Shown here piece after piece: positions 19,184 through 35,868 of a stretch of DNA of 64,000 bases. The stretch covers positions 93,352 through 157,351 of the forward strand of contig CAZCXU010000001.1 in assembly GCA_964502885.1 (NCBI GenBank), read 5' to 3'. The notes beneath the pieces are model-generated. The model saw only the letters and a list, made by a program, of their open reading frames with translations. It made no database searches and was not told where the DNA came from. The translations under genes and the position numbers were made by a program. The DNA comes from an uncultured Gammaproteobacteria bacterium (lineage in GTDB: Bacteria; Patescibacteriota; Microgenomatia; CAZETR01; Amesbacteraceae). How positions within the stretch are numbered: position 1 is the stretch's first letter; every line of letters begins with the position of its first letter.

Positions 19184-19832
19184 TTTTGACTGATGGAACG
19201 GGAACTTTTGGTAAGGTAACGTTTGTTCCCATTACATCCTGATTATAGGAATTAAAAAATAACTGTAATAGTTCATTTGAGGTTATTTGGCGCCCTTTAA
19301 GACCTATGCGAGCGAGAAGTCGCAACAAATGATCTCTTTTGGGAACAAGGTTTGTAATGGCCCGATCAACTATATAGTCTTTGGGGAGAGTGGTATTTGC
19401 TGACTTACCTCCCAGAACTTTCAGCGAAGAACCAACACCTAATTCAAGTGAACTAAATGGCAAAGATATGTAGAATTTTTTATCCAACACATTTCCCTGA
19501 CGAACGATGGCTTTGACGAAGTCGCGATATTTAGTAAGCTGTTCCTTGAGCTTTGATGTGGTGATTTGGGCAAGGTGAGTGTCCAGTTTTTCGATATAAC
19601 TGGAAATATCTTTTCGTTTGCTGATGAGAACGATTTGGATGGAAAAAGTGAGTGAGTTTAGAAGCTGTGCGTAGGCATAAATGGTGGCGTCCTGCTCTCT
19701 TTCTGAAAGAAGACCAAAGTTGACGGCGCTAATTTCCATGACCATACAGGCCGAGCCGTCTTTGAGAATGACGATGTCGTTTTGAATATCTTCAATGTCC
19801 AGATGATCTTGTGTGCGGGGGGGGATAGTCAT
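19161..19832 (-). CDS. VirB4 N-terminal (CagE/TrbE/VirB-like) domain encoded as a separate ORF
   Basis: ...DIVILKDGSACMVMEISAVNFGLLSEREQDATIYAYAQLLNSLTFSIQIVLISKRKDI resembles the N-terminal domain of VirB4 homologues. It overlaps the VirB4 start by 23 nt. An alternative upstream start lies at 19907. Confidence 0.4.
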   Translation of the reverse strand: MTIPPRTQDHLDIEDIQNDIVILKDGSACMVMEISAVNFGLLSEREQDATIYAYAQLLNSLTFSIQIVLISKRKDISSYIEKLDTHLAQITTSKLKEQLTKYRDFVKAIVRQGNVLDKKFYISLPFSSLELGVGSSLKVLGGKSANTTLPKDYIVDRAITNLVPKRDHLLRLLARIGLKGRQITSNELLQLFFNSYNQDVMGTNVTLPKVPVPSVKNEATKTP

Positions 19833-19839
19833 ACTTTTT

Positions 19840-21181: not shown

Positions 21182-23962
21182 ATGGACGATATGAGCAGCG
21201 AATCTAGACGGTCTGGTAGACTTGATTTTGACTCTGGCTTGGACGCTTCCCAAGTTAACAGAAGTGGGGATGTTGTAGGCCGAAATGTTCAAGAGTGGGG
21301 AGGGCGGGGGAGGCAGGTTGATGCGGAAGATGATAATTTAGAAATTTTCAAAAAAAAGTTGGAAGAAGCGGAGAACTTTTCTAGTATTCAGACTTATGTA
21401 GTGGGATATTTGGAGAGAGCTGAACAGAGAAACATCGTCGAGAGAAACGCAGCTTTGGAATTAATTCTGGAGAGGTCGAGATCATTTAAGGAGGTGGACT
21501 TAGGAATTCAAAGAGCTTTAAAAATCTCTCTAAAGGAGGAAAGGTTTGAAGAGTTGAAACAACTGAAAGACGAACAAGCAGCGTTGATGGTGGTGGCTGA
21601 TTCTTTAGATATGTTTGAAGGGGTAAGGCAGGTGGCTAGAGCAGGCCAGGGGGATTATTTACGAGGGAAGAGAGACGCGGATGAAATCTTTTCTGGAGCT
21701 GTGGGGCCTAATGTGTCAAATATAAGGGGTTCAGAGAAATTGCAAGGAATGGTGGACAGATACCAAGCCACAGCTGTAGGGGTGTGGGAATGGGCAAAAA
21801 GTGTGGCAAAGGGCGCGGATTATGAAGGTCGAACAAAAGAAGGTTTAGAGGCGTTGGGATGGGGAACTATCCCGTTTAGAGAAACATTGAACTTGGCAAG
21901 GGTTATAACGGAAGAAACTGTTTCTCCACCGGAAACTCCCCCCAGAGTTGGTCCATCTGGTGGTGACCCATCTCGAGGACCAGAAAGTGAGATTTTTGCT
22001 GAAAGGGCAAGGAGAGCAGAAGAGTTGTTGATAGCAACGGGATTAAGTAACAATGGTTTGCCAACATCAATTGCTGAGTTGGATGCTATTGAACAAGGGG
22101 CTCCATACATCGAAAAAACAGGCAGACCTTTGTATGGTGGAATTTTGCACAACCTGCTTAATAAATACATGACAGTTTCGGTGACTGAGGGAGAGAAAAG
22201 ATTGGGGTTGGCTAGTAAGGTGGAGGCTAATTTTACTTCTGATGAGTTGCTACTAATTAACGACAGAGATGTGAGGTTTTGGGTTCAAGTGTTTGCCTTT
22301 GGGTTTGGGTTGGGGTCTCGAACGAAAATTAATTCACATTTAAATGAGAATCAGGGTGGTTTTGTGAAGAATGCTTCAGGAGAAGCTCCCATGCAGGGGA
22401 GAAGTGTGGGTGAAATGTTAAATGCAATTGCAGGTAGGGATGTTGAGAATGATGAAAGAATGTGGGGAGAATATCGTATGGAGGCGGGGCGACGGGTGGC
22501 TCCCTCTAAGGATAATACATGGAATAAAGCTTTTGGAAATGTGCAGTATGGTGAATGGGAGGTTTTGCAGGTGGCGATGATGAGAGCAATAGTGTTGCGA
22601 GGGAATCCAGAGATTTCTTCGGATGAACTCGACACAATAATTCGTACTAATAAAAATTTACGTATGGGTTTAGCTGGGGCGAGGATGTATGCAATGGCGA
22701 CACATATGGGAGATCAGTTTGCAGTCGAATCTAAACACTTTTTAGCAACGGCGGCATATTTTGAGTTCCATTTTCAAGCAGCAGCCGTGGATAGATTGGC
22801 AAAATTATCATTACCACACAGGTTTAGGAGTTATATGAATTTAAACTCAGACTTATTTAAGGACTCGCAGGGAAACTGGAGTGATGAAACACTTATGCAT
22901 CGCAGATTATTTGCCCCTGATGTAATGCGATCAGTTATATGTTCTCCTGCTGTGTTTTCGCGAGGAGTACAAGGACCTAATCCGGAAGAATCAAGATATG
23001 AACCACAGGAGACAATCTTAGACTTGGCCATAAGGGGCATAGAAGTTCGACAAGATGCGTTGCAAACAGGGGTAACTCCTACCCGTATTTATAGTTTTGG
23101 AGTAAATGCGGCCGAAAAAATATTTAATTTGGCTTTTGGGGGTGGGACTCCCCCCGAAGGGCCGGATGTAAAGTTTGACAGAGATAAGGGATGGGCGTGG
23201 AATATGGGGCAGGAAATTCTGGCTACAGCGCGGGATTTGGGTTGGATTATGGAATATGAAAATACCATTAAACAAGAAGGGGTGAGTATGACTCCAGCTG
23301 AAGCGTCTCGACGAAGAAGAGCGATAGAACATAATATTCAGAGGTTGGGTATCACTAGGTTTATGGCTGGGTTGGGAATGAGAATAGAAAGAGGCGAAGT
23401 GCACAATTTAACCGATTTGGCGGCTTGGGCGGTGGGGATGGTGCTTGATAGAAGCGCCAAGTTTGTACATCAGATGAATTTGCCGGACGGAAGTGTCAAG
23501 CAGTTGGAGTTTCGCTGGGTATCCAAGGAGGACTCAGAATGGGTTGTAGAACATGGGTTGAATAAAAGAGATGAGAAGTGGGTGGATACGAGAAGCCCTT
23601 GGTCTTATGTTTATGAGTTAGTAACCAGGAGAGCACCTAATCGTAGAGGTGAGTGGGAAACTAAGCAGGGTGGAGAAGATGATTTATTGATTCAGGTATT
23701 GGTAGATAAGGCAGGAGGGGATGCTTCGGAAGCGGCTATGCACAGAAGAGACCAACTGAATCATCGGGTTAGAAAGTGGCGTTGGGGAGTAGGTGACTAC
23801 TTCTTGGGGTGTGGAGGGACTGCTACTAAAGAGGATGTGAGGCTTCGGGAGAGCTTTGAAGAAAAAATTGCGGGTGGTAGGGATATGCCCAAAATAGACA
23901 GGTTAACTCCATATCAAAAGGTGTACAACACATTGGACTTTTCTGATTACGGTAAAAGCTAA
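21182..23962 (+). CDS. Large soluble orphan protein (926 aa) adjacent to the T4SS-like genes
   Basis: Long ORF with no TM helix and no Walker motifs, Gly/Arg/Trp-rich. No family I recognise. Confidence 0.5.
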   Translation: MDDMSSESRRSGRLDFDSGLDASQVNRSGDVVGRNVQEWGGRGRQVDAEDDNLEIFKKKLEEAENFSSIQTYVVGYLERAEQRNIVERNAALELILERSRSFKEVDLGIQRALKISLKEERFEELKQLKDEQAALMVVADSLDMFEGVRQVARAGQGDYLRGKRDADEIFSGAVGPNVSNIRGSEKLQGMVDRYQATAVGVWEWAKSVAKGADYEGRTKEGLEALGWGTIPFRETLNLARVITEETVSPPETPPRVGPSGGDPSRGPESEIFAERARRAEELLIATGLSNNGLPTSIAELDAIEQGAPYIEKTGRPLYGGILHNLLNKYMTVSVTEGEKRLGLASKVEANFTSDELLLINDRDVRFWVQVFAFGFGLGSRTKINSHLNENQGGFVKNASGEAPMQGRSVGEMLNAIAGRDVENDERMWGEYRMEAGRRVAPSKDNTWNKAFGNVQYGEWEVLQVAMMRAIVLRGNPEISSDELDTIIRTNKNLRMGLAGARMYAMATHMGDQFAVESKHFLATAAYFEFHFQAAAVDRLAKLSLPHRFRSYMNLNSDLFKDSQGNWSDETLMHRRLFAPDVMRSVICSPAVFSRGVQGPNPEESRYEPQETILDLAIRGIEVRQDALQTGVTPTRIYSFGVNAAEKIFNLAFGGGTPPEGPDVKFDRDKGWAWNMGQEILATARDLGWIMEYENTIKQEGVSMTPAEASRRRRAIEHNIQRLGITRFMAGLGMRIERGEVHNLTDLAAWAVGMVLDRSAKFVHQMNLPDGSVKQLEFRWVSKEDSEWVVEHGLNKRDEKWVDTRSPWSYVYELVTRRAPNRRGEWETKQGGEDDLLIQVLVDKAGGDASEAAMHRRDQLNHRVRKWRWGVGDYFLGCGGTATKEDVRLRESFEEKIAGGRDMPKIDRLTPYQKVYNTLDFSDYGKS

Positions 23963-24020: not shown

Positions 24021-25751
24021 TTAGGATGTACCACCTGCGGGAGGGACAGGTCTTCGAATGTTGGCTTCTTTGGCTTTGGAGACTTGCTGACCAGCCGAAG
24101 TCAATTGTCCCATGGTGTCTTTGGCCATCTTTTCAACAAAGTCAGAAGGATCTACAGACTTACAGAACATGTTCTTAACCATGGTTGCTATGTTGGGGGC
24201 GAATGACATGGCCCCTACGAAAACTGCATATTGGACGAAAATATTACTGGGCATGTCAAATAAGGGAAAGTTGGCTTGGTTGTTAAAAAAGAAGCCTATG
24301 TCTCCGGCGAATCCTGGGACGGGAGTGCGAGTGTCAAACCCTGCATTAATTAGAATTGCTAAGAGAGCATATGTCACAAAAATTGAGGCATTGCCGATGA
24401 GACAAAGAAGCCATTTTTTAAATCCACCAAAATCAGATTTCTTCGATGGGATAATATCGAAAATAATTATTAGCGGGCCGGCGACAACCAGAAGATTAAA
24501 AGTAATAAAGGCGACCACAAATTGACCAATAATTCTGGCCCAGACGTAAATTGACCAAAGGAAGAAACCAAGAATGAAACCAGCTATGAGAACAACCACT
24601 CCTCCAGAAGCAAGATTAAGCAGTGCAGCTAGAACTATAGTGAGAATTATCAGTACTATGGAAACAACTATCCAAAAGGCAAGGAAATGCCAGACAAAAT
24701 CAAAACCGCCTCCAGCTAAGGTGGACATAGCAAGCGGCAAGTCAGTTATAATTGTCATGCCGATAGCTGTTTGGGCAAAATAAAGCATGCCAATAATTGC
24801 GGAAATGGCTAAGTACATCAGGTCAATTACGAAGCCGGCAATGGCGTATGAAAAGAGAACCAACACAATAGATATGGCAATGCGGGGAATAACCATTTGA
24901 ATTGTTACCGAGACTTGCGGAGATATTTTTGAACGGAACATAACCATAAAACCAGCAATGATGATAATCAGGGTGGTAATTAATAGTGCGATGTTTCGAG
25001 TGGCGATCCAAAATGCTCGGGTAGGAGAGTCTGTCGTTCCGGTACCACCCAAGCCAAGTCTTTCGTAACCACTTCCTTGCGCAAACGTGTCCGAGACAAT
25101 GTTGAGTTTTGAAGCAAGTTGTTTAGTTTCAGACCAGGCTGAGGGGAGGGTGTCAATTTGTGATGAGATATAGTAGGTAAGCTTGAGTACTCCAATATAA
25201 CTTTGACCTATGAATCCATATTTATTAACAAATGCCAGATCAGAAGAAGAAAAATTTTGAGTGACGAGCATGCTGCGGGCAAGATCTATCGCTGTGAGTA
25301 AATCAGTGATGTTTTGCAAAAGGGCTGCTGGATCAGGAGAAGATATAACTGAGGGAAATAACATCGAAGAGAGAGAGTTGAGGATCCAGTTTACTTGAGC
25401 GTAGGTGTAGCGCTCACCAAAAATTTCGTCGGGATTTGTATTGTCGAAAACTTTTTGCTGGAACTCCTGAATTGAAGGATTGTACCAAGGGTGTGGTGTT
25501 ACTTCGGCGAAGAACAAACGGGAGATTTCGTAGATGAGATAGGAGCAACGTGCTGCATCACCGAAAGGGTTGGGGGAAATGGCTTGACAGGCAGCATCTG
25601 CCTGAGCGCACAGCGGCTCGGCGGGATCACAGGTCGGTTGGGCAAGAACCGGTGATGGTGTGATAAATACTGTTAACCCTATGAATAGAAACGAAAGGGT
25701 AAAAAGGTATTTTTTAATCAGCATTGAAAGATGTTTTGTCATGGAAGACAT
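24021..25751 (-). CDS. Polytopic membrane protein with signal peptide and Cys-containing periplasmic N-domain; VirB6/TrbL-like candidate
   Basis: Signal peptide, then a roughly 230-aa extracytoplasmic domain, then about 8 TM helices with large loops, consistent with VirB6-like topology. Confidence 0.35.
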   Translation of the reverse strand: MSSMTKHLSMLIKKYLFTLSFLFIGLTVFITPSPVLAQPTCDPAEPLCAQADAACQAISPNPFGDAARCSYLIYEISRLFFAEVTPHPWYNPSIQEFQQKVFDNTNPDEIFGERYTYAQVNWILNSLSSMLFPSVISSPDPAALLQNITDLLTAIDLARSMLVTQNFSSSDLAFVNKYGFIGQSYIGVLKLTYYISSQIDTLPSAWSETKQLASKLNIVSDTFAQGSGYERLGLGGTGTTDSPTRAFWIATRNIALLITTLIIIIAGFMVMFRSKISPQVSVTIQMVIPRIAISIVLVLFSYAIAGFVIDLMYLAISAIIGMLYFAQTAIGMTIITDLPLAMSTLAGGGFDFVWHFLAFWIVVSIVLIILTIVLAALLNLASGGVVVLIAGFILGFFLWSIYVWARIIGQFVVAFITFNLLVVAGPLIIIFDIIPSKKSDFGGFKKWLLCLIGNASIFVTYALLAILINAGFDTRTPVPGFAGDIGFFFNNQANFPLFDMPSNIFVQYAVFVGAMSFAPNIATMVKNMFCKSVDPSDFVEKMAKDTMGQLTSAGQQVSKAKEANIRRPVPPAGGTS

Positions 25752-25797: not shown

Positions 25798-28700
25798 TTA
25801 GGGAAAGGGAAACGGGCAGCTGGGAGCAATCCATTCCCATTTGCCTTGAAGGCCAGGATTTGCGGCGGTACCGTCTCCCAACGCATATAGATCGGATTCG
25901 GCGGTGGGAATGCAGGAGTCACCCACCAGGTATATGGCAGAGAATACCCGTACTCCTCCGTAAGTATTTATTTCAGATGCGCAACGGGATCTGATGGCAT
26001 TTACGGTAAGGAGGTGACCGGTGATTTGCTGATCGAAGTTGTTTGGTGTGTTGTATTGACCGACGTGAACGCCAAAATCTTCTACTGGAGTGTTGGCTTC
26101 GTAATTGCTGGCGTCCGATTCGTTTAACCAAATCAATAGTGAAAGTCCAGGATTTACGCCGGCGGCGTCTGCGCGTGTGACGACGTCGTTGTAGCAAAGT
26201 TCTGCGAAAGTGCCATCCGGAAAATTGGTCCAGCGCCTGGCGATGTCTATGTAGTTAGTGCGATCTACACAGGGTGTGTTGGTTTCGGGAAGATTGGTGT
26301 TGCAGTTTATGCCGCCCGGTGAGTCTATAGGGCTGACTGATCCTACAAAGCCTTTTGGTCGGAGGGCGCGTTGGAGATTGAGGTTTTCACGGGTGGGGAC
26401 ACCAAGAATGTGATCGGCAAGGCTGCCGACCTTGGGAAAATAAAAAGCTCCCCCAGAAGTGCGCAAACCTCCTCCGATACCACCAGAGGCTACATTACGT
26501 CCTGCCGTGACACGGGGATTGATCAAATTTTGCACCTGGCCGTTGTAGGCTGCACTAGTTCCTGCCGGTATGGATACGTCTCTGTTGTTGGTGATGTCGT
26601 AATCGGTTTGTGTGATCTGCCAAATGCAGGAGTAGCCCTGGGATGCCATTGCCTGACAGGCTGTTTCGGTTAATTGGTTAGAACAAATTCCAAGATCTCG
26701 GGGTGAGGTGGTGGTGCAAGCTTCATATGTGCCAGTCAGGGGGAGTTTGGGCATCCAGCGACGAAGGACTGAGTTTGGGCCTGCCACAAGGATGTCATAG
26801 AGCTTTTCGATGTATGGTGTTTTTACAAAAGGATTAACCCGTGCAGCTGATCTCAGGTTGCGGGTTGGCCAGACAGGGCAGTGAGGAGGACGAGGGGCCA
26901 GTGCGGGAGCGGCACGAACAACACGCCACTCACAGTATGGTGACATTCCGGCGGCAGTACACCCAGTTTGGTCCAGGGCCGAACAAACAGAAGCATAACT
27001 ATCGTATCCAGATCTGCTGCGGCAGGCATATTCATCAGTGGGGGCACAACATATTTCGCCAGCATTACCACAATCCAGATCAATTATTTCCCGATTTTCG
27101 CCACATCCGTTTGGACCGGGCGCGCGGCAGTCGTATGTGGAGCTGGCATGGTAGCACTCGCTAATCCAAGGACAGCGTTGTCCGATTTGAATCGTGCAGC
27201 ATTCGCCCCCAGGAAGCTGGTCATTGCATTCATCTCCCTCCAGGGAACAGGGTCTATTGATGCAGTTGCCGGCACCGGCGGGACACGGGTTTGCGTCACA
27301 GCCAATTACGAGTCGGGGTGTGTAGCGGAAGAGCTGACGATATGTAAGATTTCCGTTTAGGACGTTTCCCAGCAGGCGATCTCCGGATGAAGTACGAGTT
27401 TCGGCTTCGTCGCAAGTAAAGTCTGATGGAACATATAACGCAGCGGGCGCAGGTCCGTCAATAATTTCCGTGTTGCGAATGACAGTTCCGCCACCAGAGC
27501 AGCCCCTGAGAATGGAGCCTGCAAAATATCTTTGGCAGAGAACAACTGTTTCGTCGGAGTGTCCTTCGGATGCTCCAAAACCCTGATGGCGGGCAACTCT
27601 TTGGGAAAACATATTGCTATTTTCAGAACTGAACAAGGGAGCGTGTGTGGCGGCAGGGGGTGTTGGCGTTGGAGTAGGTGTGGCCAGAACAACAGTTTGA
27701 CTTGAATAACTGGATCCGGCGAGACGAATACGAATGCTGCCGGGGAGACCGCGACTGACAAACCACTGGCTACTTCCGCCGTAGCGATAATATGAATGAG
27801 GCCATGTAGGTATGATGCCTTCGTAATAGCGTTGCACACTGACACTGGGGTCAACATAGTTACTGAGTGGACCGTAGTCTTGGTTTGTTGTCGGATCAAA
27901 AACATGGAATTGGTTCCAAAGCGCTTCACCCATACCTGGCAAACCGTAATAAACATCTATCAGGTTGTAAGCTGGCAAGTAAAAAGCCCGGAGATAGTCT
28001 GCCGGATTTGTTGATAAAACAGGAGTGGGGATTGGGGGCGGGGGGGGAGGGGCGGTGGGAGGAACAATTACCGGATATGGCTGATGCAAAGCTTGGACGA
28101 GACTTGATAAAGGAACAGCTGATTTCATGTGCGGGAAATAAAGCCGTGAATCAAAGCGGCCTGAAATAAGGGTGGGAAAACTGAGGCCAATAGTGAGAAT
28201 TCGGCCATCGATGTCTACGGGTTGAGCTTCCGGAATAACACTTGCTGTAAACTCACTCACAGTGTCCTCAAGAGTTGAGTAATTGATGTATTTATGTGTC
28301 CAGGTTTCGGTATCGAAATTGCTGGCCACCCAACTAAGGCGGCGACGCAGGGTGCTGCTGACGCAGGGTTCTGCGAGGTCGAGACGTAAAGCTGCAGTGA
28401 TGTTTCCGATGCGACTCAGCAGGTTTCTGCCTAGGGAAAAAAGCATGTTTACATCATCAAGGTTGTTGGCTATCACAGTAAAACCGTAATTTAAAAGTAC
28501 ATTTCTAATTCCGATTGGGTTGAATTGATCGCCCGGAAGTAAGGCAATGTTGACAAGTGCGCCACCAAAATCCTGCATATTATTCATGCCAACTCGACGG
28601 ATGATATCGATCATTCTGACAACATCAAGGAAACTGCCAAATGAGTTTGTAAATATTGCTTCCAGAGCGTCTAAAACATAATCAAAGTCGATGTTCCGCT

Positions 28701-29460
28701 GACAGGAAACCAGATAGTTGTGGTACTGTGACCCTACGTTGTTGCTGGCAACGGTTTCCTTTATGTCATCACGGAAGTCTTTTGGATATAATTTGTTTAT
28801 TGGCCCTGAATAAGAGGTGATGCGTTTAGTGTCGGCCGGATCGAAACCGTTTAAGGGAAGTTTTTCTGACTGGAATACCGTACCATTCAGATACCAATTA
28901 AGATATTGGTTAACTTTGTAATCGTCGGGAATTGCAACTTCGGTCTGGCCGAAAATGGGGAGTTGGGAGTTGGTCGCATTGATAGCGACTGTCCAGCGAA
29001 CTCGTTTGACGTAGCAAATGTCTGTGGATCCTGACTCACAGAGATAGTCGTCAGAACGATCGCCGCCCTCCTGGGTTAGGGGGACACTGATGGGGTTGGC
29101 CGGGAGGACTGAAAGACCACACATGTCAATAACGTCTGAGACCTCATCGTAACCTGAGACATTTAGGGATTTGGCACAATGAAATGAGAGATAGACTTTA
29201 TTGGGATCGTCCGGGGCTTCGGGGACTTTTGCGGGAATGAGGACATCGCAAGGGTTTCCAGGATAGGGTCTTAGCGGATGAAATTCCGGATCGTTTCCGG
29301 TATTTGTGTGGCAAGGATAATTAAATGGAGCCGGCCAGGGGTTACGGGTAAAAAATCCGAGAGTGGGGGTCTGGGCGTGAATAAGATTTAGCCATGGAGT
29401 GATGGCAGAAAAGACTGCTACAACAGAGCTTACTACTAACAACTTAACGGTCGGTTTCAT
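25798..29460 (-). CDS. Giant secreted Cys-rich modular protein (1220 aa), putative surface adhesin or tip protein
   Basis: Signal peptide MKPTVKLLVVSSVVAVFSAITPWLNLIHA. Poly-Pro linkers (PPTAPPPPPPIPTPV, TPTPTPTPP). Dense Cys modules (CDANPCPAGAGNCINRPCSLEGDECND...CCAPTDEYAC). It sits directly upstream of the pilin array. Confidence 0.55.
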   Translation of the reverse strand: MKPTVKLLVVSSVVAVFSAITPWLNLIHAQTPTLGFFTRNPWPAPFNYPCHTNTGNDPEFHPLRPYPGNPCDVLIPAKVPEAPDDPNKVYLSFHCAKSLNVSGYDEVSDVIDMCGLSVLPANPISVPLTQEGGDRSDDYLCESGSTDICYVKRVRWTVAINATNSQLPIFGQTEVAIPDDYKVNQYLNWYLNGTVFQSEKLPLNGFDPADTKRITSYSGPINKLYPKDFRDDIKETVASNNVGSQYHNYLVSCQRNIDFDYVLDALEAIFTNSFGSFLDVVRMIDIIRRVGMNNMQDFGGALVNIALLPGDQFNPIGIRNVLLNYGFTVIANNLDDVNMLFSLGRNLLSRIGNITAALRLDLAEPCVSSTLRRRLSWVASNFDTETWTHKYINYSTLEDTVSEFTASVIPEAQPVDIDGRILTIGLSFPTLISGRFDSRLYFPHMKSAVPLSSLVQALHQPYPVIVPPTAPPPPPPIPTPVLSTNPADYLRAFYLPAYNLIDVYYGLPGMGEALWNQFHVFDPTTNQDYGPLSNYVDPSVSVQRYYEGIIPTWPHSYYRYGGSSQWFVSRGLPGSIRIRLAGSSYSSQTVVLATPTPTPTPPAATHAPLFSSENSNMFSQRVARHQGFGASEGHSDETVVLCQRYFAGSILRGCSGGGTVIRNTEIIDGPAPAALYVPSDFTCDEAETRTSSGDRLLGNVLNGNLTYRQLFRYTPRLVIGCDANPCPAGAGNCINRPCSLEGDECNDQLPGGECCTIQIGQRCPWISECYHASSTYDCRAPGPNGCGENREIIDLDCGNAGEICCAPTDEYACRSRSGYDSYASVCSALDQTGCTAAGMSPYCEWRVVRAAPALAPRPPHCPVWPTRNLRSAARVNPFVKTPYIEKLYDILVAGPNSVLRRWMPKLPLTGTYEACTTTSPRDLGICSNQLTETACQAMASQGYSCIWQITQTDYDITNNRDVSIPAGTSAAYNGQVQNLINPRVTAGRNVASGGIGGGLRTSGGAFYFPKVGSLADHILGVPTRENLNLQRALRPKGFVGSVSPIDSPGGINCNTNLPETNTPCVDRTNYIDIARRWTNFPDGTFAELCYNDVVTRADAAGVNPGLSLLIWLNESDASNYEANTPVEDFGVHVGQYNTPNNFDQQITGHLLTVNAIRSRCASEINTYGGVRVFSAIYLVGDSCIPTAESDLYALGDGTAANPGLQGKWEWIAPSCPFPFP

Positions 29461-29484: not shown

Positions 29485-29880
29485 TTAGGAGCAGCCGATG
29501 CCTCTGGCTATACAGATATCAAATATTCCCAAATTGATACCGAGGAAAGTGCCAATAAGGTTGACTATTACGAATGCTGACAAGGTGATTATTAATCCTG
29601 CAAGAGAAAAGATAATTGTATTTCTTGCTTGTTCGGTTTGGGCTTTGTCTGCTCCTGCAGCTAGATACTTGTATCCACCAATAACCAGAAATCCTAAAGA
29701 AATGAAAACAAAAAGGCTGATGATTGCGGTAATCGCAGCGGCTATTACTCTATTTAGGTTCTGGAGCATTGCGGGCGGAGTAGGGTTTGCAATTGTTGTT
29801 TGAGCTTGAGCGACAGTAGGCCATGCTAATACGAATACAGATGCGGCCAACGTGATCAGTGAGCGAATTGTTGTGTACAT
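29485..29880 (-). CDS. T4SS pilin-like protein (VirB2/TrbC-like two-helix), paralog 1
   Basis: Signal peptide, then TM1-GADKAQTEQARNTI-TM2. It ends in a CxxxxxC tail. Confidence 0.55.
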   Translation of the reverse strand: MYTTIRSLITLAASVFVLAWPTVAQAQTTIANPTPPAMLQNLNRVIAAAITAIISLFVFISLGFLVIGGYKYLAAGADKAQTEQARNTIIFSLAGLIITLSAFVIVNLIGTFLGINLGIFDICIARGIGCS

Positions 29881-29960
29881 CTGTTTTTAATATAGGGCAA
29901 AAAAACAACCCCGGCAAGGGCCCGGGGTTGTTTTGGCCATTTCTGGCCGGTTCCAAAAAC

Positions 29961-30326
29961 TTATGAACCAATCGTTGCGAGATTGAATTCGATAAGGTTG
30001 ACGTTGAAGAGAACACGCAGAATGTACAGTAAGGCGTAAGCAGAGAAGACGATTGCCAAACCGATTAAGGCGGCAGTGATCTTCTTGCGAGCTTTTTCGG
30101 TACCTTCTTTGTCTCCACCAGCGAGAATCCATTGTAAACCACCCCAAAGTAGGATGATAAAGGAAGCTACGCCAGCGATACCCAACATAAGATTCAAGAT
30201 GGTTCTCAAGAAATCTGATGGGGTATAGTTCTTCAAAGTGTCGAAACGTGTATCGACGTTAGCCACGCTACCGACATCCGAGTCTGGAATAGGAAGAGCA
30301 AGTTGTGCAAGTAGTCTCATCATCAA
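29961..30326 (-). CDS. T4SS pilin-like protein, paralog 2
   Basis: LGIAGVASFIILLWGGLQWILAGGDKEGTEKARKKITAALIGLAIVFSAYALLYILRVLFNVNLIEF. Confidence 0.6.
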   Translation of the reverse strand: MMMRLLAQLALPIPDSDVGSVANVDTRFDTLKNYTPSDFLRTILNLMLGIAGVASFIILLWGGLQWILAGGDKEGTEKARKKITAALIGLAIVFSAYALLYILRVLFNVNLIEFNLATIGS

Positions 30327-30379
30327 ATCTCACCGCCTTTCAGTGGAAAGTATAACATAAAATCAGTGCCGGAGGCTAA

Positions 30380-30754
30380 TTAGAGGGGTGTGATAGTGTA
30401 CTCAATGAGATTGACGTTGAAGAGGGTACGGATGATATACAGAATCGCATAGGATGAAAATACGATAGCCAATCCTATGAGAGCATAGCTGATTTTGCGG
30501 CGAGCTTTCTCGACTGCGTCTTTGTCGGATCCAGCGGTAATCCATTGAAACCCACCTATTAGGAGGAATAAGAATGCGGCAACACCTGACAGGCCCAGGA
30601 GGGCAAGAATCGACGTGCGGATATAGCTGGCGGGCTGAATATTGTAGGTGTTAGCAAAAGGAGAGTTGGGGTCGCGTAGATCTATTAATTGCTGGGCATC
30701 AATAGAAGGAGGAAAGAGAAGCAAGCTTGCCAGGAGAGCGAGAATCAGTTTCAT
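30380..30754 (-). CDS. T4SS pilin-like protein, paralog 3
   Basis: Signal peptide plus ...WITAGSDKDAVEKARRKISYALIGLAIVFSSYAILYIIRTLFNVNLIEY. Confidence 0.6.
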   Translation of the reverse strand: MKLILALLASLLLFPPSIDAQQLIDLRDPNSPFANTYNIQPASYIRTSILALLGLSGVAAFLFLLIGGFQWITAGSDKDAVEKARRKISYALIGLAIVFSSYAILYIIRTLFNVNLIEYTITPL

Positions 30755-30782
30755 GTGAGTTCGAGTTTATAAGAAAGGGTTG

Positions 30783-31454
30783 TCAGTTACAAGGGATGCA
30801 GGTAATCAGGCCACATCCAGTCGTGCCGAGCGGAGTCCAAGAGCCGTTTGATTCGCATCGGAAACATGGACCATTTATGACAGATGTTGATCCTAACGTG
30901 CCTGCCGGAATGCATCTTCCAGTTGCAGATCCGCCACAGGCACACATGCCGGATGGTGGGGTGATGTCGCAGCCGGGATCTGTGGGGTTAGTACAAGGAA
31001 TCCCTGAATCCCAGGGATCACTACCAGGAGCAGGTGGGTTGGGGTCGTTGATCTGAGAGGAAATTTCCCCGATATGTCCGAGGTTGAATTGAATTAAATT
31101 GATGTTAAAGAGGGTGCGGAGAGCAAAAAGGAAACTGTAGGCTGAAAAAACAATTACCAGTCCAATTAAAGCCTGAACAACCTTTCTGCGGGCTTTTTCA
31201 ATTGCGTCTTTATCACCACCAGCCAGTATCCACTGAATACCGCCGATAAGCAGGAATATAAAAGAAAAAACTCCTGCCAGTTGGAGGAGAAGGTTTAGAA
31301 GTGTGGTCAATATCATTGATGGGGTGAGGCTGCGAATTGTCGTAAAATCCGGATCGACGTTTTGTTCTATGCCAATGTAGTCTTGTGCTTTTGCGGTTGC
31401 AGGCATTAAGAACATAGAAATAACTGTGGAGATGTGAACCAGGTGGTTTCGCAT
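30783..31454 (-). CDS. T4SS pilin-like protein, paralog 4, with C-terminal Cys-rich extension
   Basis: Pilin core (...WILAGGDKDAIEKARRKVVQALIGLVIVFSAYSFLFALRTLFNINLIQF) followed by a 90-aa tail carrying about 11 Cys. Confidence 0.6.
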   Translation of the reverse strand: MRNHLVHISTVISMFLMPATAKAQDYIGIEQNVDPDFTTIRSLTPSMILTTLLNLLLQLAGVFSFIFLLIGGIQWILAGGDKDAIEKARRKVVQALIGLVIVFSAYSFLFALRTLFNINLIQFNLGHIGEISSQINDPNPPAPGSDPWDSGIPCTNPTDPGCDITPPSGMCACGGSATGRCIPAGTLGSTSVINGPCFRCESNGSWTPLGTTGCGLITCIPCN

Positions 31455-31460
31455 GGGTAA

Positions 31461-31802
31461 TTAGAGGTTTCTTAAGGTGAATCCAATCGGATTTACATTA
31501 AATAGGACACGCAATATATAAAGAATGGCGTAGGAAGAAAAGACGATAACTAAACCTATCAGCGCGTTGATGATTTTACGGCGGGCTTTGTCGATACCAT
31601 CTTTGTCGCCACCGGCAGTAATCCACTGAACTCCACCCCAGAGCAGATAAATAAAGAAGCCAACACCAGCAAGACCCAAGAGAAGACTGATGGCTGTAGC
31701 GACATAAGCGGAGGGTTTGAGGTTTGTAATGTAGTCGTAGTTGCTGTCACCAGAATTGACAGTGATGGGAACAAATTGAGCCAATAGGTGTTGGTTGATC
31801 AT
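31461..31802 (-). CDS. T4SS pilin-like protein, paralog 5
   Basis: ...WITAGGDKDGIDKARRKIINALIGLVIVFSSYAILYILRVLFNVNPIGF. Confidence 0.6.
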   Translation of the reverse strand: MINQHLLAQFVPITVNSGDSNYDYITNLKPSAYVATAISLLLGLAGVGFFIYLLWGGVQWITAGGDKDGIDKARRKIINALIGLVIVFSSYAILYILRVLFNVNPIGFTLRNL

Positions 31803-32131
31803 AGTTCAGGAACGTTGAGGGAGAGAATCGAGACGCCAAATAACACTTCGATTATCCAAATGATTACGAATGAAGAAAGAAGTATGGCAATTCCAATAAG
31901 GGCATTACGAATACGGTGTGTGGCTTTCTGGACGCCTTCCTTATCTCCGCCGGCGGTGATATAGGCAAAACCACCCATTAACAAGTTGACGAAAAAATAA
32001 ATTCCACTTAATCCCATGACGGCATTTAAGACGTTTCTTAGTAGCAACTGGACCATGCTGTCAGCCTCGTTGACGTTGATATTTCCGATTTGACTGTTGA
32101 CCGCAGGGTTGACGATGGTAAACAGATACAT
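31799..32131 (-). CDS. T4SS pilin-like protein, paralog 6
   Basis: ...YITAGGDKEGVQKATHRIRNALIGIAILLSSFVIIWIIEVLFGV. Confidence 0.55.
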   Translation of the reverse strand: MYLFTIVNPAVNSQIGNINVNEADSMVQLLLRNVLNAVMGLSGIYFFVNLLMGGFAYITAGGDKEGVQKATHRIRNALIGIAILLSSFVIIWIIEVLFGVSILSLNVPEL

Positions 32132-32134
32132 ATT

Positions 32135-32554
32135 TTAAGGTGAAGCAACAATTAACTGCAATCCGAGACGAAAGATGTCCAATCCCAGGAATCGGCCAAT
32201 GATTCCAATTAGTCCGTATGATCCAACAACTATGAACATACCCAATATGGAAGTGGAAAGACGTTTTTTGCTTACCTCCACGGTATTTTTATCGCCACCG
32301 GCACCAATCCACTGCATTCCGGAAAGGACTATTTGATAGATGAACCAAAGTGACGCGACTATAGTGAGTAAACCGAGGATAGAAGAAACAAATTTTTCCA
32401 ACATATCTCCGGGCCCTCCACCTGTGCCAGTCATAAAAAGTCCTGAATGTCCAAATGTACCCAGAGGTCCGACACCGTCAATGTTTCCCAAGTTGACTTG
32501 AGCTAAAAGGTTTCTCATGGGGTGAATATCCGTGGTGAAATAAGCGTGTTCCAT
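32135..32554 (-). CDS. T4SS pilin-like protein, paralog 7
   Basis: ...WIGAGGDKNTVEVSKKRLSTSILGMFIVVGSYGLIGIIGRFLGL. The real start may be an internal Met. Confidence 0.5.
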   Translation of the reverse strand: MEHAYFTTDIHPMRNLLAQVNLGNIDGVGPLGTFGHSGLFMTGTGGGPGDMLEKFVSSILGLLTIVASLWFIYQIVLSGMQWIGAGGDKNTVEVSKKRLSTSILGMFIVVGSYGLIGIIGRFLGLDIFRLGLQLIVASP

Positions 32555-32874
32555 CCATTAATACCATACAGGAAGAGGCCGATGACGCTGGCGATGACTA
32601 ATGATCCGGTGACTATGGCTAGTCCCAGAAAGGATTGCCAAATGCGCTCGTGGGCTTTTTGGACCATTTTGGGGTCGCCATTTGCGCTTAAGTATCCATA
32701 CCCTGCCAAAATTAGATTGATCAATGTGTATATACCAGCCAGGATTATGGAGAGTCGGATGAGGCTGCTAAGAATTAAGATAAGACCTTCGCCCTGAGTG
32801 CCAGCTGCGAGTCTGGGATTGTTGTATCCGGATGTCCCAAATGGATTGTCGATAGTGCCGAATGCTCCTAACAT
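32515..32874 (-). CDS. T4SS pilin-like protein, paralog 8
   Basis: ...YLSANGDPKMVQKAHERIWQSFLGLAIVTGSLVIASVIGLFL. Confidence 0.5.
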   Translation of the reverse strand: MLGAFGTIDNPFGTSGYNNPRLAAGTQGEGLILILSSLIRLSIILAGIYTLINLILAGYGYLSANGDPKMVQKAHERIWQSFLGLAIVTGSLVIASVIGLFLYGINGWNTLISPRIFTP

Positions 32875-32880
32875 AGTTTT

Positions 32881-33231
32881 TTAGACGAATGGCGGGTCAA
32901 TTAAGTTTACACCTGTAATGGTAGATATAATCTGAAGTATAAAATAAGCACTAATGACTAGCAATAAGCCCAGAACTCCATAAGTGACGGAATTTTTTCC
33001 TTGCTGAACACGTTGTGGAGGGTTGATTTGTCCGCCAAAGATAATTAGTAAGTAACCTCCGTGGATGATGAGATAAATGAAATAAAGACTGGCGATTGCC
33101 ATGGCATTGAGGAGTAAGAGAGAGACAATATCGCCCAATTGACCACGGAAAGGGGAGGTGGCCCCAACGTTGGGATGGTTGACGAAAAACTTGTCTTGCA
33201 AGTTTACTGGCGGGTTAAGAAGCTGAAACAT
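32881..33231 (-). CDS. T4SS pilin-like protein, paralog 9 (divergent)
   Basis: Two hydrophobic helices flanking a ...GGQINPPQRVQQGKNSVTYGVLGLL motif. Confidence 0.45.
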   Translation of the reverse strand: MFQLLNPPVNLQDKFFVNHPNVGATSPFRGQLGDIVSLLLLNAMAIASLYFIYLIIHGGYLLIIFGGQINPPQRVQQGKNSVTYGVLGLLLVISAYFILQIISTITGVNLIDPPFV

Positions 33232-33234
33232 TTT

Positions 33235-33540
33235 TTAGATTAAGTTGGTGCGGGTAATAGTTTGAATTATTTGCAAAATAAAGAAGGCACTAACTACAGT
33301 AAGGAGGCCAAGAAGCGCGTTGGTGATCTGTCTTTTTATCTGCATGAGTTTGGCTTCGTCGCCCAGGCTTCCCATATATGCGAATCCCGCTGTAATCAGA
33401 TGGTAAAGAAAATAGAGTCCGGCTCCGGCCATGGCAAAGAGAATAGTGCGAGAGGCGATTGTTGAGGGTAGTGTGGCACTGGTCGAGAATCGGCCGGAGG
33501 TGTGGATGAAATCGGGAATCTGAGCTAAATGTGAGTTCAT
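33235..33540 (-). CDS. T4SS pilin-like protein, paralog 10
   Basis: ...YMGSLGDEAKLMQIKRQITNALLGLLTVVSAFFILQIIQTIT. Confidence 0.5.
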   Translation of the reverse strand: MNSHLAQIPDFIHTSGRFSTSATLPSTIASRTILFAMAGAGLYFLYHLITAGFAYMGSLGDEAKLMQIKRQITNALLGLLTVVSAFFILQIIQTITRTNLI

Positions 33541-34055
33541 TAGAGTCGGAAACCAAATAAGGAGAGACCTAAGACGTTAAATCCTAAGAAGTTGAGAACG
33601 ACGATGGCGGAAGTGATAAGAATTAAACCTAGTACTGCCGAGGTGAGTGTGTCTTTGGCGGAATTAATTTTTTTAGGGTCGCCTTCAGCGGTGGCAATAG
33701 TGAAACCCGCATATACGATCAGAAGAAGAGTAGCCAGGCCGGCCAAACCAACTGCCCAAGTAGCAATAATCCAGACTGTATTTTGAGTATCGGAGGTGGG
33801 TATACAACCTAAGGCTGTCCTAATAGCACCAGTGCCTGCACAAAAAGGATTTTGAGCATTACATTCTGCTACAGTGTCGCAACAAAGATGTTCCATAGGG
33901 TTTGCACATTGAGGGCGGGCGACACAGGGACTGTAAGTACCCCATATTGTTCGAGAACGGATTTCACACCAGCTGTAAGTTGGATCTGGGAGGGATAATA
34001 CTGACGTGACAAATAAAAGTGTTGTGATAAGTATTCTAAGTGGTGCAGATTTCAC
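33540..34055 (-). CDS. T4SS pilin-like protein, paralog 11, with N-terminal Cys-rich secreted module
   Basis: Signal peptide, then a roughly 70-aa module with 10 Cys, then the pilin core (...FTIATAEGDPKKINSAKDTLTSAVLGLILITSAIVVLNFLGF). Confidence 0.5.
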   Translation of the reverse strand: MKSAPLRILITTLLFVTSVLSLPDPTYSWCEIRSRTIWGTYSPCVARPQCANPMEHLCCDTVAECNAQNPFCAGTGAIRTALGCIPTSDTQNTVWIIATWAVGLAGLATLLLIVYAGFTIATAEGDPKKINSAKDTLTSAVLGLILITSAIVVLNFLGFNVLGLSLFGFRL

Positions 34056-34080
34056 AGATTAAGTTTAGCATAATTCGGGT

Positions 34081-35868
34081 ATGATAATTGGTATGACGAA
34101 AGTGAGACTTACAATAATATGTTTAATAACGTTTTTATGGATAACCATGACATCTTCGGTGCGGGCAGAGGAGTGTGATAATCCAGGAAGTTTGTCTGAT
34201 CCAGTAACAATAACCAGATGCATAGGCAAATTTAATGGAATATTGGAAGCGATTTCGAAAGCAAATTCTAACAACAAGCAGCAGCTGCAGGGGATGCAGC
34301 AACAGATTGCCAAACTACAAGCGCAAATAAAAGCTTTGGAGATGCAAATCGGGGTGCTACAAAAAGGAATATTTGAAAGAGAAGTACGGGTGGGGGTGAA
34401 ACAGGAACTGTTGTCTGCGAAAGTGAGACGTGACTATGTAGTGAAACGAGATCAGCCAATATTGCAGGTGTTGTTTGCTGCTGATGGGGCAGCGGATTTT
34501 TTTCAAGATATGTTTTTGCGGGAGAAGTTGGCGCGGCTGGACCATGCATTGATTGTGTCTGTGGGGGGGGAGATTAAAAATTTGAATGATCAGGCGCAAA
34601 CTTTATCGTCCCAAAAACAAAAACTGGCGAGTCTTCAGGCGCAAGTAGATAAGCAGGCGGATTTTCTACAGGCGGAAGTCGAAAAAGCCAGTAAATATGA
34701 GTCTGATTTGGGAGGGAAGATCTCAGCATTGACCGCTAGGCAACAGGAATTGCTGGCGGAAAAGACTGGGACTATCGCCACTTCGGTCGGAGATGTACCA
34801 CTAGCTGACGATCCGGCCGCGAGACCGGATTACAATCCAGGTTTTTCACCGGCGTTTGCCATGTTTTCGTTCGGGGCGCCACACTTTAAAGGGATGAGCC
34901 AATATGGGGCTTTGGGTAGGGCCAAGGCAGGCCAGAGTTATGAGACCATTCTTAAGGCTTACTATGGTGATGTGAGGATTGTGGATGTGGGAACGGGTTT
35001 TTCGATAAGGACAAGTGCAGGAACAATGCCAATGGAGGATAGATATATGAAGGGGATAGCGGAGATGCCGACGTCGTGGGCAAATGACGGGGGAATGGAG
35101 GCGTTGAAGGCGCAAGCGATAGCGGCCAGAAGCTATGCGTTGAGTTATGTGGGGTGGCGAATGGGTAAACAATCAGCCGGAGGTTCGATTTGTGTGACGG
35201 AAGCGTGTCAGGTATGGAGATCGTCGAAAGCAAACAGTCCCGGAGCGTGGGGAAGTGCTGTTGATCAGACTAAGGGAAAGATTTTGGTGAGTAACAAAAC
35301 GGGAGAAATTATTAGCGCCTGGTATGCGAGTACGTCGGGAGGTTATCAGGAAAGTTATACCACCTTGGGCCATACTACTCCTGGATTTTGGGACACGACA
35401 TCAAATTGGACGAGGTGGGCAGATGGAGCGTATGAGGTAAAAGCAGGAAGTCCGTGGTTTTATAAAGGCTGGTACAAGACCAGGACAGGAAAAACCTGTG
35501 GCAGGGCACATCCGTGGCTTAACCAGGAGGAGTTCTCAGATATGGTGAATGCTGCCATTGTGGTGGAAAGAGGTGGAGATGTGTCGGGAATTTTTCCTGA
35601 AGATGTGAGGAGTTGTTGGGGTGGAAGTGACAATCCATGGTCAAAAGACCGGTTGGCACAGGAAGCGGACAAGCATGGTGGCCGGGTGACGAGTGTCGGT
35701 AGTGTGAGAGTGGAGCATGGAAACAATGGTATTACAAACAAGGTAATACTTTCGACAAATAGAGGAGAAGTTACGATTACCGGAAGTAATTTCAAACGAG
35801 CATTTAATTTGCGCGCCCCAGGAGCTCTAGCTTTGAAGAGTGGACTTTTTAATATCGAAAAGAAGTGA
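34081..35868 (+). CDS. SpoIID/LytB-domain peptidoglycan hydrolase with N-terminal signal/TM and coiled-coil region
   Basis: Coiled-coil Q-rich N-terminus. SpoIID/LytB motifs ...MEALKAQAIAARSYALSY...AWYASTSGGYQESY.... Confidence 0.55.
   Translation: MIIGMTKVRLTIICLITFLWITMTSSVRAEECDNPGSLSDPVTITRCIGKFNGILEAISKANSNNKQQLQGMQQQIAKLQAQIKALEMQIGVLQKGIFEREVRVGVKQELLSAKVRRDYVVKRDQPILQVLFAADGAADFFQDMFLREKLARLDHALIVSVGGEIKNLNDQAQTLSSQKQKLASLQAQVDKQADFLQAEVEKASKYESDLGGKISALTARQQELLAEKTGTIATSVGDVPLADDPAARPDYNPGFSPAFAMFSFGAPHFKGMSQYGALGRAKAGQSYETILKAYYGDVRIVDVGTGFSIRTSAGTMPMEDRYMKGIAEMPTSWANDGGMEALKAQAIAARSYALSYVGWRMGKQSAGGSICVTEACQVWRSSKANSPGAWGSAVDQTKGKILVSNKTGEIISAWYASTSGGYQESYTTLGHTTPGFWDTTSNWTRWADGAYEVKAGSPWFYKGWYKTRTGKTCGRAHPWLNQEEFSDMVNAAIVVERGGDVSGIFPEDVRSCWGGSDNPWSKDRLAQEADKHGGRVTSVGSVRVEHGNNGITNKVILSTNRGEVTITGSNFKRAFNLRAPGALALKSGLFNIEKK

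Follow-up and report, generated by a model that had tools for sequence, protein, structure and literature searches.

Predicted VirB2-like pilins with cysteine-rich extension modules at fixed positions in a Patescibacterial type IV secretion system pilin array

A contig (CAZCXU010000001.1) from an uncultured member of the Amesbacteraceae (Patescibacteriota, Microgenomatia) carries, within the 64,000-nucleotide (nt) stretch that was analysed here in full and that we refer to as the window, a tandem array of genes for predicted pilins of a type IV secretion system (T4SS). Two members of this array, P4 (positions 30783-31454) and P11 (33540-34055), possess cysteine-rich extensions in addition to their pilin cores. 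Both had been singled out in an earlier interpretation made from the letters alone (the sequence-only reading), and translation reproduces both open reading frames (ORFs) on the minus strand, the coordinates of their parts, and the peptide strings that had been quoted from the P4 tail. We suggest that P4 and P11 are modular VirB2-like pilins of the monoderm-type T4SS of the Patescibacteria, or candidate phyla radiation (CPR), in which a two-helix carrier is combined with a disulfide-rich, extracellular effector module; the probability that we attach to this interpretation is about 0.5. Its foundations are directly established: a pilin core and an extension in each of the two proteins, the evolutionary conservation of the extensions, the fixed position of the two genes in a collinear eleven-gene array, and the attachment of both modules to the predicted exposed side of the pilin hairpin. 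Beyond this, we infer that the modules are displayed on a pilus and function in adhesion.

The array consists of eleven small ORFs that are arranged head-to-tail on the minus strand (29485-34055); they are numbered P1 to P11, and transcription proceeds from P11 towards P1. All five of the paralogs that were scanned match the Pfam family PF18895 (T4SS_pilin), four of them, including P4 and P11, above the gathering score of 26.6 bits; the three paralogs other than P4 and P11 score between 26.2 and 33.1 bits, with P1 (26.2 bits) falling below the cutoff. Two further features of this family are present as well: the array is embedded in a T4SS gene cluster that contains VirB4-like and PrgI-family genes, and both P4 and P11 exhibit, in hydropathy analysis, two hydrophobic helices separated by a short loop rich in Lys and Arg. 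The description of the two proteins as pilins in the sequence-only reading is thus borne out for their cores, with a specification as to type: the ORFs of the array are, by sequence, VirB2/TrbC-type T4SS pilins and not type IV pilins, and Pfam scans of P4 and P11 detected neither the N_methyl family nor any type IV pilin family. When compared with the canonical TrbC/VirB2 family (PF04956), P4 attains 21.5 bits (E=2.8e-4), which is below the gathering score of 27.9 bits, and P11 has no match in the Pfam scan. The relation to the canonical TrbC/VirB2 proteins therefore exists at the superfamily level only.

P11 is the first gene of the array; it begins with a GTG start codon and encodes a protein of 171 amino acids (aa) whose PF18895 match extends from aa 92 to 157 (E=2.7e-9, 37.4 bits). 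A predicted Sec signal peptide (aa 1-25; 33981-34055), with a hydrophobic stretch at aa 4-23 and with equivalents in the homologues, is followed by a Cys-rich N-terminal module of 55 aa (aa 30-84; 33804-33968) and then by the VirB2-like core (33543-33782), the two hydrophobic helices of which (aa 93-125 and 135-169) are connected by the loop EGDPKKINSAKD. The existence of a Cys-rich module in front of the core had been recognized correctly from the sequence; the number of its cysteines is eight and not about ten. All of them reside within aa 30-84, with spacings of 13, 5, 7, 0, 5, 6 and 11 residues, and the chance of finding at least eight cysteines in 55 aa is 8e-8 (binomial) given the background of 1.0% Cys in the long ORFs of the window. 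The eight cysteines are kept in the homologues P0077 and L002, and P0077, P0078 and P0079 agree with P11 in signal peptide, core and the placement of their cysteines; the full form of P0078, which has its own signal peptide, is found in the related locus L002 at 9860-10399, and a further homologue of the N-module is present in L016. At the end of the module lies a junction loop, C72-x11-C84, with the motif TALGC (33804-33842). Such a C-x11-13-C loop ending in TA[IL]GC[IL] occurs in all 27 P11-class proteins that were collected (27/27), including minimal forms with only two cysteines. The A[IL]GC segment of the junction was also considered as a lipobox and was rejected as such, as it is located 60-400 aa beyond the signal peptide. 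The cysteines of P11 follow a spacing of the C-C-CC-C type. In a knottin, or inhibitor cystine knot, three disulfides are connected in the order I-IV, II-V and III-VI; for P11, no significant evidence for a cystine-knot pattern was obtained, and the AlphaFold2 (AF2) model of its N-module is unreliable (predicted local distance difference test, pLDDT, of 47).

P4, the eighth gene of the array, encodes a protein of 223 aa (PF18895, E=2.2e-8, 34.5 bits) in which a signal peptide precedes a VirB2-like core of the P2-P5 type and a linker joins this core to a C-terminal module. In the core (aa 45-118; 31101-31322), the basic loop GGDKDAIEKARRK connects two hydrophobic helices (aa 45-80 and 91-118). 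The linker comprises 35 aa (aa 119-153; 30996-31100) and is rich in Pro, Ser, Gly and Asp, with poly-Gly or Gly-Pro stretches in the homologues. The Cys-rich module of 70 aa (aa 154-223; 30786-30995), as delimited by alignments of the tails, confirms the tail that had been noticed in the sequence; it contains all of the cysteines of P4, ten instead of the roughly eleven originally counted, with spacings of 7, 8, 1, 7, 15, 2, 13, 4 and 2 residues (binomial p=2e-9 for at least ten cysteines in 70 aa against the same 1.0% background). Its consensus reads (C-x4-7-C)-x8-CxCGG-x4-6-C-x2-[AN]G-x9-11-G-x-C[FYW]xC-x2-3-G-xW-x6-7-C-x4-CxxC-[NP]-COOH. Homologues with 37-53% identity (P0002, P0003, P0008, P0089, L015, L016, L017 and L019) possess the same layout of core, linker and module, and in each of them the module stops one residue past its last cysteine; more divergent versions of the C-tail, as judged by eye, are found in L040 and L055. 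The orthologues in L016 and L019 occupy the same position in their arrays as P4 does in the window. When the related genomes were inspected for the two modules, as the sequence-only reading had advised, both architectures indeed turned up in further uncultured genomes, where they occupy the corresponding position of the array. The P4-type module is nevertheless rare; an exhaustive profile search recovered only three pilin-linked representatives among 1.84e9.

The AF2 model of the P4 tail, which was built from a 5-row alignment, predicts an all-beta mini-domain of about 55 aa with five strands (pLDDT 75.6; predicted template modelling score, pTM, of 0.60). A search with this model provided no significant structural neighbour; the only weak ones were VWF-C4, fibronectin FnI and factor H CCP domains, all of them extracellular binding modules. 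Pfam searches of the tails with E-values of up to 10 yielded nothing meaningful. FnI, VWC and CCP/Sushi modules resemble the P4-type tail in being small and all-beta, but the CCP and FnI modules contain four cysteines and the P4-type tails eight to ten. The Sushi/CCP module is a beta-sandwich of about 60 aa with four cysteines (connected 1-3 and 2-4) and a conserved Trp, and neither the Pfam model (PF00084) nor structure places the P4 tail in this family. A profile of the P4 tail weakly matches the Sushi repeats of P0080 (1200 aa; 16 stretches), a Sushi/CCP protein of the eukaryotic type, and it likewise weakly matches the Ig-like RII repeats of MpAFP, the ice-binding RTX adhesin of Marinomonas (PDB accession codes 4p99/4kdv), whose repeat motif reads NG-x-Y-…-G-x-W-S; the feature in common is a hairpin of the form NG-x-[CY]-[FY]…G-x-W. 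A relationship with the RII repeats was not accepted, because the E-value of 2.8e-9 is inflated by four identical repeats; a single repeat yields E=0.025 and an hhalign P of 0.08, which makes it a weak lead only. The resemblance of the P4 tail to Sushi and Ig-like repeats is a likeness of fold class and not one of family membership.

According to the positive-inside rule, the basic loop of the pilin core should be cytoplasmic and both termini should be located outside. The F pilus, which is the archetype of this fold, has its loop lining the lumen and both its N- and C-termini on the outside (PMC6635492). As both termini of the core would point outwards, the N-module of P11 and the C-module of P4 share the exposed side of the hairpin, and a single protein family can thus carry modules at either end. 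The cysteines of the modules behave as expected for disulfide-bonded residues: their number is even in 44-45 of 54 non-redundant Cys-rich pilins (binomial p ~7e-7), and they are gained and lost in pairs, with C154 and C162 being present only in the 10-Cys forms, and the equivalents of C197 and C214 both missing from P0008. This pairing predicts C154-C162 and C197-C214 bonds. Enzymes that could support such bonds, MdbA-like thiol-disulfide oxidoreductases and VKOR, are enriched in CPR genomes (bioRxiv 10.1101/335083).

Seventy-six related loci were obtained from scans of GTDB genomes and Joint Genome Institute (JGI) metagenomes and were searched with a hidden Markov model (HMM) built from the eleven paralogs. 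The close homologues of the pilins are labelled Amesbacteria, Woesebacteria and Shapirobacteria. In at least ten further divergent arrays, the genes follow the same collinear order, P11→P10→P9→P8→P7→P6→[P2-P5 type, 1-5 copies]→P1, and the gene for the N-terminally Cys-rich pilin and that for the tail-bearing pilin hold equivalent positions across these arrays. In L016, twelve genes can be mapped one-to-one and in order onto P11, P11, P10, P9 … P1, and P11 is the best match of the first gene in at least twelve related arrays. The flanks are conserved as well, with orf619, orf241 and a SpoIID gene all oriented divergently upstream, and a giant Cys-rich protein and a 576-aa membrane protein downstream. 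It follows from this collinear orthology that the paralogs represent distinct orthologous subunit classes and not interchangeable variants. The P2-P5 group, marked by GGxQWIxAGGDK and including the core of P4, shows the highest conservation (51-77% identity) and is the only class that has been amplified, a pattern that one would expect of major pilins. The collinear loci comprise L016 (3625-9315), L002 (9860-14117), L019, L027-L031, L046 and L006.

A census of the long arrays (35 arrays with at least six genes) revealed that 18 of them begin with a P11-class, N-terminally Cys-rich pilin, a protein that may reach 515 aa and contains between 6 and 38 cysteines. Two more arrays possess such a pilin at an internal position, and several of the remaining ones are truncated where the contig stops or come from Cys-free lineages. 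The N-terminal type is thus a general one. The C-terminal Cys tail is rare, with five of the 35 arrays having it; it is invariably attached to a core of the P2-P5 type, two or three genes before the end of the array. Within the P11 class, junction and core are 43-51% identical across genomes, and the N-extensions, which range from 45 to about 400 aa in length, only 11-28%. Tandem duplicates of P11-class genes show the same partition; their cores are 69% (L004) and 47% (L016) identical, but their modules only 26% and 21%. A weak BACON-like segment was noticed inside the 38-Cys N-extension of the pilin encoded at 7411-8880 of L004. This segment, a fusion of another T4SS_pilin core to DUF3160, the flexible Gly/Pro linkers ahead of the C-modules and the partition between stable cores and changeable modules all support the view of the pilin as a carrier of effector modules.

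In the mechanism that we propose, P4 and P11 would be exported via Sec, their signal peptides would be cleaved off, and the Cys modules would then become oxidised outside the cell. The P11 class would constitute a low-copy, specialised subunit, most likely the tip or an initiator, because its gene holds the first position, exists in a single or few copies, and encodes a bulky variable module together with a conserved junction loop. Its variable N-modules would provide a rapidly changing surface for binding to the host cell or its envelope. P4, whose core is of the major type, might be incorporated together with the shaft pilins; its flexible 35-aa linker would then display a second binding module, a more conserved one, along the filament or on the cell surface. 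The idea of a specialised minor pilin, which the sequence-only reading had put forward, is in good agreement with the status of P11 as a distinct and conserved orthologue class that leads the array.

Several points weigh against this interpretation, and a number of them favour its main competitor, in which the proteins are membrane-anchored accessory components of the T4SS: the hairpin would serve as an anchor, the Cys domains would be positioned at the cell surface or in the wall beside the T4SS as receptor, wall-spanning or gating parts, and no polymerised pilus would be made. Gram-positive-type T4SSs are normally pilus-free according to two studies (PMC10633639, PMC12102498), the literature on this lineage grants it only a "potential to elaborate conjugative pili" (PMC12857230), and the VirB2-like pilus of the Patescibacteria, and the place of any paralog in one, are predictions. 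Furthermore, pilin cores are fused to domains of considerable size. An 888-aa protein (L060, 6941-9607) has an N-terminal T4SS_pilin core followed by about 790 aa that contain DUF3160, Cys-rich regions of 300-400 aa are joined to T4SS_pilin cores in L004 and L008, and the core is found in the middle of Cys-rich proteins of 467-499 aa in L007 (6942-8345) and L009 (7091-8590); for fusions as large as that of L060, a membrane-anchored protein is easier to envision than a subunit of a filament. However, P4 and P11 have cores that are full and conserved members of the pilin family like those of their Cys-free neighbours, they keep a fixed order in an array that a cultivated relative cannot do without, and P4 has the core of the most conserved, amplified, major-type group. 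The modules would be located outside under either interpretation, which differ only with respect to polymerisation. We regard the anchor hypothesis as unlikely, but as one that has to be taken seriously. The remaining reservations concern the data themselves: the loci were gathered with pilin-derived queries, so that the census is a biased sample; Pfam scans found no gene for a disulfide-forming oxidoreductase in the window, and the disulfides are deduced from the cysteine patterns; and the low quality of the P11 module model (pLDDT 47) has already been mentioned.

The modules might also have a purely structural function, in which disulfide-rich domains stabilise, cap or prime the filament, as an initiator or through intermolecular cross-links, and bind no host ligand. 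The presence of the junction loop even in the minimal 2-Cys proteins of the P11 class, the conserved C-terminal C-x3-8-C loop of the P1 class, and a P4 tail that is conserved to the same degree as its core (38-51% versus 44-53% identity) are all compatible with this view; the latter property also sets the P4 tail apart from a rapidly diversifying receptor-binding tip and as such counts against our own proposal. In addition, the place of P11 at the head of the array recalls the minor pilins that prime type IV filaments (GspHIJK and PilVWX complexes; discussed in PMC8179133). However, the length range of the P11-class N-extensions (45 to about 400 aa), their fast sequence turnover, and the existence of tandem duplicates with different modules are typical of interaction surfaces, and we therefore judge an exclusively structural role to be distinctly improbable. 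Still less probable is a metal-binding or redox module. The P4 tail possesses two CxxC motifs (C197-x2-C200 and C219-x2-C222) that are separated by 18 residues and kept in most homologues, and these could form a site resembling a zinc ribbon instead of disulfides. A zinc ribbon consists of two CxxC knuckles that provide four metal ligands, and it is usually cytoplasmic, but the P4 module is predicted to be extracytoplasmic and is modelled as a five-strand beta domain; moreover, P0008 has lost the first Cys of the first CxxC together with the equivalent of C214 and not with another putative ligand, a paired loss that speaks against a CxxC/CxxC zinc site. We hold an equally low opinion of the possibility that the modules are cleaved from their carriers and released as toxin-like or bacteriocin-like effectors. 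Their small size (55-70 aa), their density of cysteines and the flexible linker in front of the P4 tail would suit such a role, and the C-C-CC-C style of the P11 spacing recalls toxin frameworks in general; however, no conserved protease site was recognised, the junction cysteine C84 ties the P11 module to the core (as judged from the even Cys number and the conserved loop), and no stand-alone copies of the modules were present in 77 loci or among the 1.84e9 representatives. Finally, the GTG start of P11 has no obvious Shine-Dalgarno sequence and is located only 25 nt from the divergent SpoIID ORF, so that one might suspect a mis-called start, a frameshift, a lost stop codon or an assembly chimera. 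The sequence-only reading had named frameshifts and mis-called starts among what would undo it, and all of these errors are effectively refuted: P4 and P11 are both uninterrupted ORFs, an in-frame stop codon lies just before the GTG and no alternative start retains the signal peptide, a Logan contig from an independent assembly encodes a protein identical to P4, the architecture, the Cys positions and the array position are retained in divergent homologues (37-53% identity), and the signal peptides are found exactly where the extended N-terminus demands them.

Considered as modular pilins, P4 and P11 can be compared with several known systems. Patescibacteria, in particular Microgenomatia and Saccharimonadia, have been described by Quiñonero-Coronel et al. 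2025 (PMC12102498) to encode, close to the replication origin, a monoderm-type T4SS whose VirB2-like pilins come in tandem arrays of 2-11, and the pilin array is needed for the epibiotic growth of Southlakia epibionticum, a cultivated Saccharibacterium, as reported by Wang et al. 2023 (PMC10633639) and in PMC12857230. The array studied here belongs to the same Pfam family and to the same type of T4SS near dnaA; with eleven divergent pilins it is placed at the top of the published range, and such arrays are reported to be abundant in Microgenomatia. PMC12102498 and PMC10633639 treat the paralogs as small variable pilins and suggest antigenic or host-range variation, whereas we find ordered orthologue classes. 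The available text of both contains no reference to Cys-rich modules, to gene-order orthology or to a junction loop, and it mentions the term cysteine solely in connection with CHAP domains. The VirB2 paralogs of the host-interaction T4SSs of Bartonella and Anaplasma, as cited in PMC12102498, are likewise tandem and divergent, but they are thought to be interchangeable; the paralogs of the present array fall into ordered classes, two of which have extra domains.

The canonical VirB2/TraA/TrbC pilins (PF04956) of the F pilus and the T pilus have the two helices, the basic loop and the exterior termini (PMC6635492) in common with P4 and P11. Once the leader has been removed, they measure only about 70-120 aa, and they carry no additional folded domain, in contrast to the fusion of a Cys-rich domain to the pilin that is observed here. 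In canonical systems, adhesion and the tip role are assigned to a separate protein, VirB5 (PMC12857230); Pfam scans of P4, P11 and the neighbouring proteins found no match to the VirB5 family. The closest analogy is provided by the modular type IV pilins of Streptococcus sanguinis, PilB with its vWA module and PilC with its lectin module, in which a module is likewise grafted via a short or flexible linker onto a small carrier pilin (PMC8179133). These modular type IV pilins are low-copy minor subunits that are probably tip-exposed and that carry diverse grafted modules (PMC8179133). Type IV pilins possess only one helix, at the N-terminus, and a signal peptide of class III, so that the PF18895 scaffold of P4 and P11 is not homologous to theirs, and the assembly machineries (T4SS versus that of type IV pili) are different; the two types of modular pilins are analogous and not homologous. 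N-terminal modules, such as that of P11, are impossible in type IV pilins.

Pilin arrays of this kind and their essentiality were already known; within the literature that we searched, modular members rich in Cys, a class with a junction loop that opens the array, the C-terminal module and the collinear orthology had not been described. One may go a step further and envision the array as a fixed, ordered kit in which no fewer than seven different VirB2-like subunits (P11, P10, P9, P8, P7, P6 and P1) are combined with the amplified P2-P5 majors; this kit would build a heteromeric filament with a host-recognising tip of the P11 class and a shaft decoration of the P4 class, replace VirB5, and set the host specificity of CPR epibionts; this extended proposal is tentative, and we consider it more doubtful than the modular nature of the two pilins. 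The only Patescibacterium that is genetically tractable cannot grow epibiotically without the T4SS and its pilin array, and modular Cys-rich pilins at fixed positions offer testable candidates for the host-contacting parts of this apparatus. The paralogs of the array emerge as specialised subunits rather than redundant variants, and the principle of a carrier pilin with a grafted effector module is extended from the type IV pilins to the unrelated VirB2 fold. Furthermore, with the TA[IL]GC junction motif and the tail consensus as queries, such proteins can be sought in thousands of CPR genomes, and the type of module can be related to host or habitat.

Directly downstream of the array, the window encodes a secreted, Cys-rich protein of 1220 aa with 40 cysteines (25798-29460, minus strand) that matches neither a Pfam family nor a sequence in the PDB. 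A dense cluster of cysteines is found at aa 721-861 (26878-27300). The portion from aa 45 to 460 is conserved in Cys-rich proteins of 589-1313 aa (with up to 52 cysteines) that always follow the array, and the Cys-rich remainder is variable; counterparts are present in L016 (9342-12839), L027 (8224-11601) and L040 (3210-7151). The protein is a candidate for a T4SS-associated surface protein. The sequence-only reading had proposed that the Cys spacing of P4 and P11 echoes modules of this neighbour, a notion that did not withstand analysis. BLASTP comparisons of the 1220-aa protein with the pilin Cys modules were not significant, phmmer found no matches of its aa 700-960 among all ORFs of the loci, and the profile HMMs of the tail and of the N-module matched pilins only; BLASTP revealed no relationship between the modules of P4 and P11 either. 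What these proteins have in common is a short CC motif, C-x(5-8)-CC-x(3-7)-C, often in the form CG..G..CC, of which P11 has one copy, the 1220-aa protein two, and the relatives many in their long N-extensions. A profile of this motif that was built without sequences from the window ranked the 1220-aa protein at the top of the 229 ORFs of the window with a marginal E-value of 0.011, and a shuffle test of its two motif copies gave p=0.0016 for a pattern that had been defined post hoc. Homology between the pilin modules and the 1220-aa protein is hence not supported; a shared mini-motif is possible.

Eight of the nine remaining paralogs of the array contain no cysteine at all, and P1 alone has two, at its C-terminus. 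P1 (131 aa; 29485-29880), the last pilin, ends in a C-x6-C loop (DICIARGIGCS; 29488-29520), which adds a third Cys feature to the exposed face of the hairpin. Its orthologues in six other arrays keep a C-terminal C-x3-8-C and conform to F-x-[IV]-C-x3-8-C-COOH; P1-class genes are located at 8929-9315 of L016, 7826-8191 of L027, 7780-8142 of L028, 12569-12856 of L006 and 2929-3219 of L040. The Cys-free paralogs P2 (29961-30326) and P3 (30380-30754) belong to the GGxQWIxAGGDK group, and P5 (31461-31802), P6 (31799-32131), P7 (32135-32554), P8 (32515-32874), P9 (32881-33231) and P10 (33235-33540) complete the array. The only DNA repeat family within the array is a 36-nt element that encodes GGxQWIxAGGDK in six paralogs with 61-83% identity (30105-32320). 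Recombination cassettes were considered, but no long identical tracts were detected between the paralogs, and there is accordingly no evidence of gene conversion. Full signal peptides ending in …[AF]AQ are present in P1, P3, P4, P11 and many orthologues elsewhere, whereas P2, P5, P6, P7, P8, P9 and P10 are devoid of a Sec-type signal peptide, and no longer ORF is possible upstream; P2, P5, P7 and P10 open with a short M..(L)LAQ leader. In these paralogs, either the N-tail requires no signal peptide for insertion, or there is a dedicated leader that undergoes processing.

On the other side of the array, a gene for a SpoIID-domain protein of 595 aa (34081-35868, plus strand; PF08486, E=1.2e-14) is oriented divergently. 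It is found upstream of every related array, and its product is 55-68% identical in at least 12 loci and thereby more conserved than any of the pilins; it may be a cell-wall- or peptidoglycan-remodelling partner of the T4SS comparable to VirB1. Only 25 nt (34056-34080) separate the SpoIID ORF from the GTG start of P11, so that the promoters of both directions must overlap coding sequence. The polytopic membrane protein of 576 aa (24021-25751, minus strand; no Pfam match) is encoded directly downstream of the 1220-aa protein, an arrangement that is kept in at least 12 loci, and it is possibly a VirB6-like channel subunit. The core genes of the T4SS are those for the VirB4-like ATPase (17318-19183, minus strand; PF19044/PF12846, TraG P-loop/AAA_10) and for the PrgI/VirB3-like protein (19840-20931, minus strand; PF12666); a 248-aa ORF belongs to the same minus-strand group (17318-20931). 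The PrgI/VirB3-like protein has a C-terminal CarboxypepD_reg (Ig-like) domain, and its gene adjoins an ORF of 926 aa on the plus strand (21182-23962) without a Pfam match; a homologue of the latter was not found in the pilin-centred loci, the flanks of which may fall short of that region. The setting of the T4SS genes is chromosomal and as usual for a CPR genome, with dnaA and dnaN nearby at 12.9-15.6 kb (12917-15647). The cumulative GC skew climbs monotonically across the entire window (1-64000) without a sign change at dnaA/dnaN, so that an origin placed there on the basis of these genes is unmarked by a skew switch. The window also contains genes for YidC, tRNA modification, SmpB, DnaG, a sigma-70 factor and a class I aminoacyl-tRNA synthetase (3715-5961).

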